Positions 45,103-54,628 of a stretch of 64,000 nucleotides of DNA are shown in pieces. Both the position numbers and the translations under genes were made by a program. The notes beneath the pieces are model-generated. The model was not told the DNA's origin, made no database searches, and saw only the letters and a program-made list of their open reading frames with translations. The stretch is from a bacterium (GTDB taxonomy: Bacteria; UBA8248): positions 960,001 to 1,024,000 of the forward strand of contig OZ241875.1 in assembly GCA_965203325.1 (NCBI GenBank). Reading direction: 5' to 3'. The first letter of the stretch is position 1; the number at the start of each line of letters is the position of its first letter.

Positions 45103-48100
45103 ATGGATCCCATACGTCCCAGACCGGAAGTGATGTACGTCGAAGCCAGGAAAAGACTCGTCACGTGGCTGCGCAAACAACTCATTGGGCCATCCTCCGA
45201 AAGCAGCCTGAGAATGTCCCCGCTGGATCGGTATCCAACCGGCGTACTCCATCCCATCGACCCCGATGTGTCCGGCATCGATCCGGCCTCCACAACCCAG
45301 GAAGAAGCCGAGCCGACCCTGCTGGATGAAGAGGATGACCCTACCGACTCTGACGACGATTCGGGCGATCGGAGGCTTGGGCAACCTGTTCGACGGCGGC
45401 GATACGTTCCACCCTCTTCTGTGGGATTCTCCTTCTTCGTTCGTGGTGCGGCGCGCCTTTCAATCACGGCCTCCGCCTCGATCTACAGGAGTAATGACGA
45501 CCGCGACGAGCACGGCCGATTTCGGCCGATCGAATACGTCCGGCAGGAGCTTCCCGAAGAGCCCGTCACGTGGTGCGGCTCCACATCCGCCAGTGAGTCA
45601 CGTACCGACATCTGGGATGGCTGCGCCGGGGTCGATGTTCGGGAGCGTCCTCACAACGATGGCCAAATTCTCACCGTCACCCTGTGCAACCGGAAAGAAC
45701 TTGACCAAGACGTGGCCCCAAATCTCAAGACCCGCGACCGGGTATACAAGGCGCTCTTCGAGGCGCGGCTCGAATGCCTCATAGAGAGCGGCGAGTTGGT
45801 CGAGTATCCGCGGGTCGAGGCGAGCCTCCTTACCGAGGAGGAGCAGGAACTTGAACTTCAGTACAGAGAACAACGAATCTACGCCATTGGACACGGAGCA
45901 GCCGCCAACTGGGATGTGAGCCCGGGCCGCACAGCGCAGATCCGGTCTGAGTTCATGCCGGAAACAGAAGTGCCCATGATGACCGTCAACACCGGCGGTG
46001 ACGATGCGGTGCTCAGCCTCAAGTACCTCGCCGACACGCCCGACACCGACAAGTTGGAGCACTTCGTCAACGGCTATGCTGACTGGATAGGCGAGCAGGA
46101 GCGCATCGCCACCAAGTTTTCCGAGAAGGACCAACGACTCGCCGCAGACCGAATATGCGCAAACATGCAAGTCGCGCTGGACCGTATGCGCGAATGCATC
46201 GAGATGCTTCGCACCGATCGACTCGCGTCCGAGTCATTTCGGATTGCGAACCAGGCGATGCTGGCTCAGATGAGCCAGGCTGATCGCATTGCCGGAAAGG
46301 AGACCGATCCCGGCGCGTACCGTTGGCGGCCGTTCCAGTTGGCCTTCCTTCTGACAGTGATGGTGTCCACGATCCACGAAGACGACGAGTTTCGCGATTT
46401 CCTGGACCTGATCTGGTTTCCTACCGGCGGCGGGAAGACAGAAGCCTACCTAGGTCTGATCGCGTTTCTGATCGCGTGGCGGCGCGCGAAGTTTCCCGAT
46501 TCAGGAAGAGGAACCACCGCCTTGATGCGCTACACCTTGCGGCTGCTGACCCGCCAGCAGTTCGAACGCGCCGCCCGCATGATTTTTGCTCTGGAACTGA
46601 TTCGCCGGCGCAATTCCGAACGCTTGGGCGATGATCCCATCGACATCGGCATCTGGGTCGGCAACGAGATCAGCCCCAACCACTACGAAGAGGCGAGGGA
46701 TATCGTCGAGCAGATAAGGCAAGGAAAGTCGGATGCGCGTTATCGACTTCTGCTCGAACGTTGCCCCTGGTGCGGCAAACCGTTCGACCCTGCGCGCGGT
46801 TATCGTGCCACCGATAACGAATTCAATTTTCAATGCACCAATCGTGAATGCGCATTCGGCGAGGACGCACGCGCTCTACCGTGCAACGTCGTGGACGATG
46901 CGCTCTATGACCGACCGCCGTCGCTGCTGATTGCGACCATCGACAAGTTCGCGCGCCTAGCCTGGGAAGAGCGTACCGGCGCCTTCTTCGGCGTCGGTAA
47001 CAGGTCGCGCCCGCCAGAATTGATCATCCAGGACGAACTGCATCTGATCACCGGCCCCTTGGGTTCGGTCGCAGGGCTGTACGAGGCGGGACTCGACACC
47101 CTACTCGTCCGCCGCGGCGTCCGACCTAAGTACGTCGCGTCCACCGCAACCATCCGCATGGCGAAGGATCAAGTGAAGCGTCTCTATGCGCGCGATCTAG
47201 CCGTATTTCCTCCTCCGGGGTTGTCTCACGACGATACGTACTTCGCCCGTACCGACCTTGAACGTCCGGGTCGGCTCTATGTCGGATTCCTCGCCCCAAT
47301 GCTCAATCAACAGCACTGTCTCGGCCCGCTCGCCTCGGCGCTGCTCGCCGGCCCTGAGGCATTGTTCGACCACGACATGGACCGGGACGCACTGCTCGAT
47401 GCCTGGTGGACTCAGGTCGTATACCATGGAAGCCTCAAGGGTCTCGGGAACAGCCACAATGCATTTGTCATCGACGTCCGTGACTTCGGCCGATGGCTCG
47501 TTAACGGGCTTCAGCATGAGGATGAGCTTGATCTTGCCGCCGAAAAGGACGCATTAGCGGAGAATTCGTCCGACACCCTGCTTCGATTCAGCAATACCCG
47601 GATTGCCCAACTCACTAGCCGCCGAACGGCGCGGGAAAACGCAGAGACATTTCAACAGCTGACAATTGCGCAAGGAGACGAGGGTTGTCTCGACGCGGTT
47701 CTGGCGACCAACATGGTGTCGGTGGGCCTGGACGTCGCTCGCCTTGCCCTGATGATCGTCAACGGCCAGCCGCTGACCACCGCAGAGTACATTCAGGCCA
47801 CCAGCCGCGTCGGCCGGGCCGATGTCCCCGGTCTTGTCGTGGCCAACTATTACCGGCATCAGGCTCGCAGCCTCTCGCATTACGAGAGCTTTCGCCCCTA
47901 CCACGAATCGTTCTACCGGTTCGTGGAGCCGAGCAGTGTCACTCCTCATACCTTCCAGGTGCGGTCCCGCGCACTTCACGCCGCTCTTGTCATTGCCATT
48001 CGGCACGCTTGCACGGAACTACAGGCCAACAAGTCGGCCGGAAAGTTCAACCGGGAGTCCGAAGAGGTCAAAGCCGTCATCGTGGCATTCAAGGGACGCT

Positions 48101-53032: not shown

Positions 53033-54628
53033 ATGCGCATGGTCCCAAGCGCGCCGTTCGACACAGGAAGCCAGGCGGAGAAACGGGTCTTCGAACGGCT
53101 CTGCCGCACCTTCGATGACCGATATACCGCCTATCATTCCTTGAAACCAACCACACATCCGTACAAACAATATCCGGAGATCGACTTCGTCATCTGCGGC
53201 CCGGAAGGGCTGTATGTACTGGAGGTGAAGGGCGGAAGAATCGCCTTAAGCGAGGGCGCATGGCATTACCAGGATCGTTACGGTCGAATCACTCCCCATA
53301 TGGAAAGTCCTTTTCGTCAGGCAGAGACCGCGTTGCATGGGCTTATGGAAAAACTGTGCACCCATCTTTCCTCCACTGTCCTCAGTCGCCTTCGAAGAGG
53401 GTATGGCGTGGTATTCCCCGATTGCGAATGGCAGGCCTACGGATCGGAATGGGATCCGGAGATGGTTGCCGACAGACAACGCAGCCGGGACATGGAAGGC
53501 TGGCTTCGCCAGCTTTTCGAATACTGGAAAAACCGTGGCGGACCGCGAGAACAGGCTGATGACGATACGCTGAGAATTATCCGAGAGCACATTCGCCCGA
53601 ACGTGAGTGCCTCAATCGGGCTGTATGAGGCGCCTGACCCTCTGTCTCAACAAGTGGAAGACGCAGAACGACGCATTGAGCGTATGACTGAAGACCAGAT
53701 GCGAATGTCGGATGTGGCGGAAGCCAATCCGCGAGTGCTTTGCGCGGGTGGCGCCGGAACCGGGAAGACGTTTCTGGCTGAAAGGCTGGCCCGCCGCTGG
53801 ACCGAATACGGCATGCAGGTGGTACTGGTATGCCGATCACCTTGGCTGCGGCACCACCTCGCATCGCGGCTTGCGATCCCTGGCCTGACCGTATCGCTAA
53901 TTGACGGCGTCCACTTGGATTGCCGACGAGCCGGACTGGATCGCTTCGATGCATTGATCGTGGACGAGGGCCAGGACCTGTTCGAGATGGCCAGCATCGG
54001 CATGCTGAACGACGTTCTTGCCGGTGGGTTGGAGAAGGGTCGCTGGTGCTGGTTTCACGATCTGAACAACCAGGCACTCACCCGGCGCTTCGAGCCGCGC
54101 GCGAAGGAATACCTGGAATCGATCAACCCCGTACGCATGCCGCTGCGCACCAACTGCCGGAACACCAGGGTTATCCTGGAATGGGTTCAAGACACTCTCG
54201 GCGCTGACGTTGGTACACGCGGAGCCGGCGCCGGTCCAGAGGTCCGCCGGCATACAGTCTCCGGCCAGCACGAATCCGCCGAGCGCGTTGTCCGAGAGGT
54301 TGCTGAGTTCGTTGACATAGGAGGTCTCGCGCCTGGTTCCGTGACAATTCTCTCACCCTTCGATTACGCCGATTCCTCCGTGGCCCATGTGCCAGCGGAA
54401 GTTGCAGATCGGATTTGCCGTCTGGACGAGTACTCGGTGCGGAGAATTCCGGGCGACAAGGTTGGATTCGCTCGGATCGACGAATTCAAGGGCCTGGAGA
54501 ATGAGGCTGTCATCGTCGTCGATCTTTCCGCTCCGAACCAGACGAACAGAGAATTGGCGGCCCACTACGTAGCTATGACCCGGGCTCGCTCGCTGTTGTC
54601 CATCGTTCAAAGAGAGTCTCGTTTTTGA
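53033..54628 (+). CDS. NERD nuclease fused to a UvrD-like helicase
   Basis: EIDFVI.GPEGLYVLEVKGG, SPFRQA, GGAGTGKT, IVDEGQD, NCRNT, FKGLE, YVAMTRAR. Confidence 0.9.
   Translation: MRMVPSAPFDTGSQAEKRVFERLCRTFDDRYTAYHSLKPTTHPYKQYPEIDFVICGPEGLYVLEVKGGRIALSEGAWHYQDRYGRITPHMESPFRQAETALHGLMEKLCTHLSSTVLSRLRRGYGVVFPDCEWQAYGSEWDPEMVADRQRSRDMEGWLRQLFEYWKNRGGPREQADDDTLRIIREHIRPNVSASIGLYEAPDPLSQQVEDAERRIERMTEDQMRMSDVAEANPRVLCAGGAGTGKTFLAERLARRWTEYGMQVVLVCRSPWLRHHLASRLAIPGLTVSLIDGVHLDCRRAGLDRFDALIVDEGQDLFEMASIGMLNDVLAGGLEKGRWCWFHDLNNQALTRRFEPRAKEYLESINPVRMPLRTNCRNTRVILEWVQDTLGADVGTRGAGAGPEVRRHTVSGQHESAERVVREVAEFVDIGGLAPGSVTILSPFDYADSSVAHVPAEVADRICRLDEYSVRRIPGDKVGFARIDEFKGLENEAVIVVDLSAPNQTNRELAAHYVAMTRARSLLSIVQRESRF

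Follow-up and report, generated by a model that had tools for sequence, protein, structure and literature searches.

The window analysed here, a stretch of 64,000 nucleotides from a bacterium of the UBA8248 lineage (GCA_965203325.1, contig OZ241875.1, positions 960,001 to 1,024,000), carries at 45103-54628 a cassette of five genes, which combines drmA and drmB of the DISARM defence systems with a compact superfamily 1 (SF1) ATPase, a protein without any family match (gene 4) and a NERD nuclease fused to an SF1 helicase. We put the probability that this conserved DrmAB cassette is a methylation-independent anti-phage system at about one half, the anti-phage role being one that we infer from its context. 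An earlier note, made from the letters of the window, had proposed a distinct DrmAB-based system with a different effector module. This proposal is supported by conserved synteny, by the lack of drmC and drmM and by the lack of a catalogued counterpart; its anti-phage part is suggested, here as well, by context.

All five open reading frames (ORFs) lie head to tail on the plus strand. The drmA gene (45103-48354, 1083 amino acids) encodes a superfamily 2 DExH helicase of the DISARM/YprA family and drmB (48423-50282, 619 amino acids) its OB-CON-DUF1998/MZB partner, with 68 nucleotides between the two. At the TGATG of positions 50280-50284 the drmB stop codon overlaps the ATG of gene 3 (50282-51442, 386 amino acids), which encodes the UvrD-like SF1 ATPase and whose own stop overlaps the start of gene 4 (51439-53025, 528 amino acids) in the GTGA at 51439-51442. 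An alternative start of gene 4, the ATG at 51442, would create a second overlap of the TGATG type. Only seven nucleotides (53026-53032) separate gene 4 from the ATG of gene 5 (53033-54628, 531 amino acids), the NERD-helicase gene. Five co-oriented and tightly coupled genes had been described before, and the ORF list and the junction letters read exactly so. A scan of 43800-55400 for promoters and terminators gave no signal (four promoter-like sites with 3.8 expected, seven terminator-like sites with 10.6 expected). An ORF of 128 amino acids at 54625-55011 was rejected as a sixth member, as it has no counterpart in L001, L002 or any other of the loci described below.

DISARM class 1 consists of drmABC, drmD and drmMI, and class 2 of drmABC, drmE and drmMII. 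The first protein of the cassette matches DrmA in PADLOC (E 2e-201; best model PDLC02575) and reaches 839.7 bits with NCBIfam NF038325, which is below the equivalog cut-off of 950. The second exceeds the cut-off of the NCBIfam DrmB model NF038324 (340.3 bits, cut-off 240) and also matches Pfam MZB (E 1.7e-9) and PADLOC DrmB (E 3.4e-60). For gene 3 the Pfam matches are UvrD_C_2, UvrD_C and AAA_19, accompanied by weak PADLOC matches of the GajB type. Gene 5 is matched by NERD (E 1.2e-10), AAA_30 and UvrD_C_2 in Pfam and by RTasNERD-Hel (E 6.6e-43) and Nhi (E 9.6e-6) in PADLOC, while gene 4 has no match at all in Pfam, PADLOC-DB 2.0.0 or NCBIfam. The DrmC, DrmD, DrmE and DrmM models of PADLOC match none of the five proteins (E <= 0.001), nor does any of these contain a Pfam PLD domain. 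These negative model searches of the five proteins agree with the earlier statement that drmC, drmD, drmE and an adjacent methyltransferase are missing.

To look for the same arrangement elsewhere, gene 4 was used as probe. Its relatives number 615 among 90%-identity clusters (8,000 candidates scored) and form 440 clusters at 50% identity (E <= 0.001); none of the relatives listed bears a functional name or a Pfam domain. In total 89 loci were compared, nine from species-representative genomes and 80 from metagenome contigs, the latter being the best 80 of 144 confirmed relatives. Neighbours were counted with hidden Markov models of the five proteins built from these loci, and a locus entered a count only if its DNA reached far enough on the side concerned. 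The SF1 ATPase gene lies beside gene 4 in 66 of 66 such loci, DrmB is present in 51 of 51, DrmA in 34 of 35 and the NERD-helicase in 57 of 61, so that the last three genes are indeed conserved next to drmAB, as had been supposed. The order drmA-drmB-SF1 ATPase-gene 4-NERD-helicase is kept over the 89 loci, in which the identity of the gene 4 proteins ranges from 30 to 93%. Because it recurs in 89 loci, the arrangement is far beyond chance. Judged from these sequences, the five genes are a real evolutionary unit which is inherited as one block. In L057 the NERD-helicase is a divergent copy located upstream of drmA.

Two further loci deserve mention. L003 contains at 1421-1684, about 2 kb upstream of the full-length drmA, a copy of the DrmA N-terminus (88 residues, 62% identity), possibly a remnant of a rearrangement. 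In L019, one of the loci without NERD-helicase, a reverse transcriptase gene (2413-3672, RVT_1, 419 amino acids) lies directly upstream of drmA; the best PADLOC model of the NERD-helicase in the window, RTasNERD-Hel, is likewise named for a reverse transcriptase-associated NERD-helicase.

The ATPase, zinc and NERD motifs of the block are retained. Of 31 DrmA copies that were aligned, at least 97% keep the Walker A motif PTGGGKT (440-446, with K445), the DELH of residues 644-647 and motif VI, QATSRVGR (898-905). The same degree of retention is seen for the DrmB cysteines C556, C562, C578 and C581 (53 copies) and for Walker A (GGPGTGKS, 34-41, with K40) and Walker B (DEGQD, 138-142) of the SF1 ATPase (66 copies). 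In the N-terminal tail of the latter, R4, L8, P9, L14, K16 and Q18 are invariant in the family alignment. Gene 5 retains the NERD residues E49, D51, E64 and K66 as well as Walker A (GGAGTGKT, 239-246, with K245) and Walker B (DEGQD, 311-315), again in at least 97% of the copies (58 aligned). It thereby combines the NERD PD-(D/E)xK residues with the SF1 Walker A and B motifs by which Nhi-like NERD-SF1 nuclease-helicases are recognized. With all ATPase, zinc and NERD motifs intact, the parts of the cassette appear functional.

The cassette shares with class 1 DISARM the split into a DrmA helicase and an OB-CON-DUF1998 protein DrmB in the same order, and PDLC02575 is the best DrmA model for both. 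It differs in that the DrmC PLD nuclease, the DrmD SNF2 helicase and DrmMI are replaced by three other genes. From class 2 it differs by the lack of any match to DrmE or to the DrmMII C5 methylase among the five proteins. The genus also includes a genome, G014, with a canonical class 1 system, DrmD-DrmMI-DrmA-DrmB-DrmC (L093, G014:C1:1155500-1175400), in place of the five-gene cassette. In a sample of 401 Pseudomonadota genomes DrmB was found above the family cut-off in 12, and the genomic context could be evaluated for ten, two lying on short contigs. Full class 1 DISARM is present in G360, G082 and G452, and G135 encodes DrmD-DrmMI-DrmAB with no DrmC detected. The five-gene type occurs in G154 and G051. 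The remaining contexts are variants: drmA-drmB followed by an SF1 helicase (505 amino acids), an unnamed protein (495 amino acids) and DrmMII in G368 (L119), an unnamed protein of 905 amino acids with a NERD-helicase upstream of drmA-drmB in G417 (L120), drmA-drmB between a GajB-like helicase (837 amino acids) and a NERD-helicase in G447 (L125), and an RmrA-like gene together with drmAB in L118. A relation between the 495-residue protein of L119 and the gene 4 family could not be shown (hhalign probability 4%).

A quick maximum-likelihood tree of DrmA was calculated from 33 sequences, comprising 18 from five-gene loci, five from class 1 systems, nine variants and a DruE-like sequence, which serves as outgroup and has a very long branch; 14 further five-gene sequences were omitted. 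All 18 five-gene DrmAs fall into one clade with a support of 100 (Shimodaira-Hasegawa-like approximate likelihood ratio test). L119, L120 and L125 are their successive sisters in a joint clade with a support of 96, and the five class 1 DrmAs are found elsewhere in the tree. By sequence, then, the five-gene DrmAs are a lineage of their own, apart from the sampled class 1 DISARM.

The surroundings of the cassette were searched for DISARM components as well. Within about 6 kb, 147 of 161 selected ORFs of at least 128 amino acids were scanned, from 33 metagenome loci (L048, L084, L085, L086 and some others are outside this set), and a second scan comprised 53 ORFs from the seven genome loci L003 to L009. 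No PLD domain was found in the 147 ORFs, and no stand-alone PLD nuclease in the flanks of the genome loci, where L006 and L007 contain this domain only within a PLD-ResIII-DUF3427 helicase of about 1,000 amino acids. Methylase domains were detected in two of the 33 metagenome loci (L042 and L083) and in none of the 53 ORFs of the seven genome loci. Homologous loci that normally carry drmC or drmM, which would have identified the cassette as a decayed DISARM, are therefore not what is seen. The flanks differ between loci and often encode housekeeping functions: in L053 the cassette lies between trpE and trpG-trpD-trpC, and in L003 between gcvT and a gene for an FAD oxidase. The genome of the window (95.5% complete) contains no match to the DrmC model PDLC02587, and its sole match to the DrmMI model is a weak one, to the MmeI-family gene of the window (6308-7597). 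No C5 methylase domain was found in the window ORFs scanned. Of the methylases in the window, the type I hsdM (26952-28937) and the MmeI-family enzyme (6239-9034) lie closest to the cassette.

The protein encoded by gene 4 is predicted with high confidence to consist of a DarT-like ADP-ribosyltransferase (ART) fold fused to a fold resembling ADP-ribosylglycohydrolases (ARH). The AlphaFold2 model, built from a 52-sequence alignment, has a predicted local distance difference test score (pLDDT) of 92.2 and a predicted template modelling score (pTM) of 0.91. It contains the ART-like domain at about residues 12-180, a helical ARH-like domain at about 194-422 and a small C-terminal beta domain at about 460-528. 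In a Foldseek search of the PDB the top match is DarT (7omx, E 4.7e-5, template modelling score 0.55 on the target); six DarT or DarTG chains are found at E <= 0.001, followed by ARH3 entries at E of about 0.03. With VIA-align four DarT chains reach Z-scores of 8.4-9.4 over residues 12-180, two of them with Z 9.4 (root mean square deviation 4.1, 156 residues aligned) and Z 9.0 (3.5, 155 residues aligned). Over residues 194-422 nine chains of the ADP-ribosylglycohydrolase family reach 9.7-12.3; they include ARH3, ARH1, MJ1187 and, from two ART-ARH toxin pairs, the immunity proteins. Unrelated proteins do not exceed 5.8, with the caveat that helical folds can score high by chance. The possible ART-fold protein of the earlier note is thus supported by both structural comparisons of the predicted model.

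At the level of sequence this relationship is not seen. Profile searches against the PDB with the whole protein, the N-terminal and the middle domain gave matches at chance level only, and the ESM Atlas yielded only clusters without a name and, at 0.75, a single weak cluster with an ARH domain. Neither Pfam DarT (PF14487) nor ADP_ribosyl_GH (PF03747) matches gene 4, and hhalign comparisons of the family with 12 DarT sequences (probability 0.7%) and 19 ARH sequences (0.3%) are not significant. Among 14 longer family members (607-731 amino acids) Pfam reveals no fused domains except for two helix-turn-helix (HTH) hints below threshold. The residues N28, N31, Y52, D54, G61, P130-L131-P132, G202 and W391 are invariant in the family, and K50, E81, H84, D156 and N159 nearly so. 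The acidic residues E375 and D377 are conserved too and may correspond to metal ligands of ARH enzymes; a TDD-type motif of the ARH kind was not found in the profile alignment, itself non-significant. The catalytic glutamate of DarT, E160 in DarT2 and E152 in DarT1 (PMC11543638, in part), aligns in the hhalign register, which is uncertain although it agrees with the strand order, with position 124 of gene 4, where V, A or L is found. In the same uncertain register the histidine of the first DarT strand corresponds to the variable position 24. Position 122 is acidic in just 49 of 70 copies. The ART-like domain appears to be non-canonical and is possibly no enzyme.

In one genome with the five-gene cassette, G051, a DarT-ARH pair can be recognized directly from sequence: a weak DarT-family gene (68.9 bits) is directly followed by a gene for an ARH-domain protein of 600 amino acids (G051:C1:791261-792965; L146, L168).

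Genes 3 and 4 were chosen for a complex prediction because they overlap and always occur together. For the pair of SF1 ATPase and gene 4 protein the score of the predicted complex is 0.84, compared to 0.00 for the best control. Such a score is attained by 116 of 157 solved complexes and by two of 215 mismatched pairs, counts that apply only approximately to the custom alignments used here. Three runs share at least 94% of the contacts, and the partner has a pLDDT of at least 86. On the ATPase side the interface is formed by residues 7-12 of the N-terminal tail, including the invariant L8 and P9, and on the side of gene 4 by residues 48-52, 82-84 and 152-160 (K50, Y52, H84, D156, N159). In the model the tail sits in the cleft of the ART-like domain (30-37, 48-52, 82-84, 152-160), the site of much of the conservation in the gene 4 family. 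The prediction supports binding of the two proteins as a heterodimer. Since the conserved cleft is predicted to hold the ATPase tail, a non-catalytic role as adaptor or switch seems to us more likely than that of an enzyme.

The way in which such a system could work may be outlined as follows. By analogy to class 1 DISARM, DrmAB would load onto invading DNA at single-stranded ends or at replication intermediates. A heterodimer would be formed by the SF1 ATPase, whose N-terminal tail is gripped by the ART-like cleft, and the ART/ARH-like protein, which would serve as an adaptor or switch rather than as an enzyme. This pair would couple the loading of DrmAB to the NERD-SF1 protein, and the latter, a putative nuclease-helicase, would unwind, cut and destroy the invading DNA. 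The cell's own DNA would be spared by virtue of DNA structure and not by a methyl mark. In favour of a role in defence we count the neighbourhood in the window, namely a type I restriction-modification (RM) operon with PtuAB, PDC-S68, PD-Lambda-4, VapBC and an element with integrase and TrwC relaxase.

Several observations weigh against this reading. L005 has no drmA within 10 kb and in its place an AAA_21/DUF3226 pair. The NERD-helicase is missing in four loci with room for it (L008, where only a remnant of 30 residues is left, L013, L019 and L067), and the copies of L075 and L083, included in the 57 mentioned above, are broken; the nuclease is accordingly not essential, and another part could be the effector. 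The placement of the DarT residues depends on a non-significant alignment (hhalign 0.7%), so the loss of catalysis in gene 4 is unproven, and N28, N31 and D54 are invariant yet outside the listed interface residues and could be an active site. The DrmA tree was built without class 2 sequences. The sister operon L119 has a methylase of the DrmMII type, which means that methylation is used nearby in the tree. Finally, defence, DNA cutting and DNA binding are steps that we infer, and the complex reflects model confidence.

Some of these points lead to a different idea, the main rival, which we consider possible but improbable: the gene 4 protein would be an active, non-canonical DNA ADP-ribosyltransferase and the real effector, with the NERD-helicase as an accessory. 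Once single-stranded DNA is exposed by DrmAB and the SF1 ATPase, ADP-ribosylation of this DNA by the DarT-like domain would block replication, and the ARH-like domain would keep the mark in check or remove it. Such a function is suggested by the DarT-like fold (Foldseek E 4.7e-5; Z 8.4-9.4 over about 155 residues) and the ARH-like fold (Z 9.7-12.3), by the invariant polar residues N28, N31, Y52 and D54, and by the single-stranded DNA on which DarT enzymes act (PMC11543638, in part). Genes 3 and 4 are, moreover, always kept, and the absence of the NERD-helicase from four of 61 loci would be explained as well. On the other hand, no invariant Glu or His is found at the DarT places (V, A or L at 124; 122 acidic in 49 of 70), no TDD-type motif of ARH appears in the non-significant profile alignment, no Pfam match to DarT or ADP_ribosyl_GH exists, and the conserved cleft is largely a predicted protein interface. 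That the family of 440 clusters represents a novel group of DNA ADP-ribosyltransferases which carry their own ARH eraser and are delivered by DrmAB to unwound DNA of the invader appears rather unlikely to us. If true, it would be the first helicase-guided immune system based on DNA ADP-ribosylation, and four-gene forms without nuclease would be explained.

It is quite unlikely, in our view, that the cassette depends on methylation and borrows its methylase from the type I hsdM or the MmeI-family enzyme of the window. DISARM is linked to methylation, two RM methylases lie in the same island, the sister operon L119 comprises a DrmMII-type methylase, and L042 and L083 have methylases within 6 kb. 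However, 31 of 33 metagenome loci and seven of seven genome loci have no methylase domain within about 6 kb, several cassettes are found between housekeeping genes (L003, L053), and the neighbours vary while the five genes stay.

We give hardly any credence to the view that the genes are not one system, but a decayed DISARM minus drmC and drmM or a DrmAB remnant beside a stand-alone Nhi-like NERD-helicase: although defence islands crowd unrelated systems, single-protein NERD/SF1 defences exist (PADLOC matches to Nhi and AbiO at E 1e-5 to 1e-6) and a genome of the same genus has canonical class 1 DISARM, this is largely refuted by the synteny, with order and content kept down to 30% gene 4 identity in 89 loci, and also contradicted by the stop-start overlaps, the intact motifs, the DrmA clade of its own and the size of the family (440 clusters at 50% identity).

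Among other defence systems, DarTG resembles gene 4 by the predicted DarT fold of the N-terminal domain and by the combination of writer-like and eraser-like folds. DarTG combines the DarT ADP-ribosyltransferase with a macrodomain or NADAR eraser, whereas gene 4 has an ARH-like eraser fold in the same chain, no match at the sequence level, no canonical Glu and His that could be found, and a location in a helicase operon. A nuclease joined to an SF1 motor, or a UvrD-like motor, likewise takes part in defence in the case of Nhi and other NERD/SF1 nuclease-helicases, ArmD of ARMADA type II and GajB of Gabija. The PADLOC matches to Nhi and GajB are weak (E 1e-5 to 1e-15) and partial, and the cassette has no GajA as in Gabija, no RelE domain and no BrxHII/PglX partners. 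PADLOC-DB 2.0.0 contains no model matching gene 4 and no name for the five-gene set. A description or name was not found in the literature either, subscription papers being partly outside this search. So the set does not appear to be an already catalogued system, in agreement with the earlier note. In the study of Bell et al. 2025 (10.1101/2025.09.15.676423) the DrmA of L004 (MDE0051543.1) is filed as 'DISARM-like helicase', a label that comprises 3,487 rows without subclasses in supplementary table 1. Its text mentions 'many uncharacterized DISARM-like classes', and in the parts covered the five-gene set is not described. A SAR11 operon with DrmAB, a DrmMII-type methylase, helicases and no DrmC, reported in PMC13712998 (in part), is closer to L119 than to the five-gene cassette. 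We regard the latter as a system built on DrmAB in which the accessory module is new and one protein family is assigned for the first time.

The cassette bears on the question of how DISARM stops phages and which part is the effector; DrmC has been reported to be dispensable for DISARM (PMC13712998, in part). Here the DrmAB sensor is kept, every accessory gene is swapped and usually no methylase is present, which makes the cassette a natural experiment on what DrmAB defence requires and on how self DNA is spared without methylation. In addition, a predicted fold and partner are assigned to a large family without match in Pfam, PADLOC or NCBIfam, whose members would be pseudo-enzymes put to another use or else DNA-modifying enzymes of a new kind.

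The defence island of the window ends with the cassette. The type I RM operon (hsdM, hsdS, hsdR) extends from 26952 to 35236 and has PtuA-PtuB, an ATPase and HNH pair of the Septu/retron-effector type, inserted between hsdS and hsdR. It is followed by PDC-S68 (35410-39204, 1264 amino acids, PADLOC E 0), a large single-gene candidate defence protein, and by a homologue of PD-Lambda-4_A (39547-43824, 1425 amino acids, PADLOC E 3e-96), an HTH-bearing candidate defence protein. Further upstream lie the MmeI-family type IIG enzyme (6239-9034, minus strand), a tyrosine integrase (12895-14070) and a TrwC relaxase-helicase (17153-19969, minus strand); integrase and relaxase indicate that the island is located on a mobile element, either integrative mobilisable or conjugative. 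A VapB-VapC (PIN) pair (44320-45025) directly precedes drmA. The pair is kept in L001 and L002, and PIN/VapC genes are also found upstream in L031, L044 and L073, so these genes may be a recurrent companion or mere island filler.

In five loci the start of drmA is abutted by a gene for a DEDD (RNase_T) exonuclease of about 205-216 amino acids, which results in a six-gene form (L014:1011-1634, L031:1879-2523, L034:1650-2267, L038:1303-1953 and L044:3203-3820). This neighbourhood recalls the exonuclease MrfB, the partner of the YprA helicase MrfA. In L042 the cassette is flanked by an Eco57I-like methylase (114-3512, 1132 amino acids) and a DEAD-MZB helicase of the DruE/ARMADA type (13278-19655, 2125 amino acids), which places two YprA-family systems next to each other.

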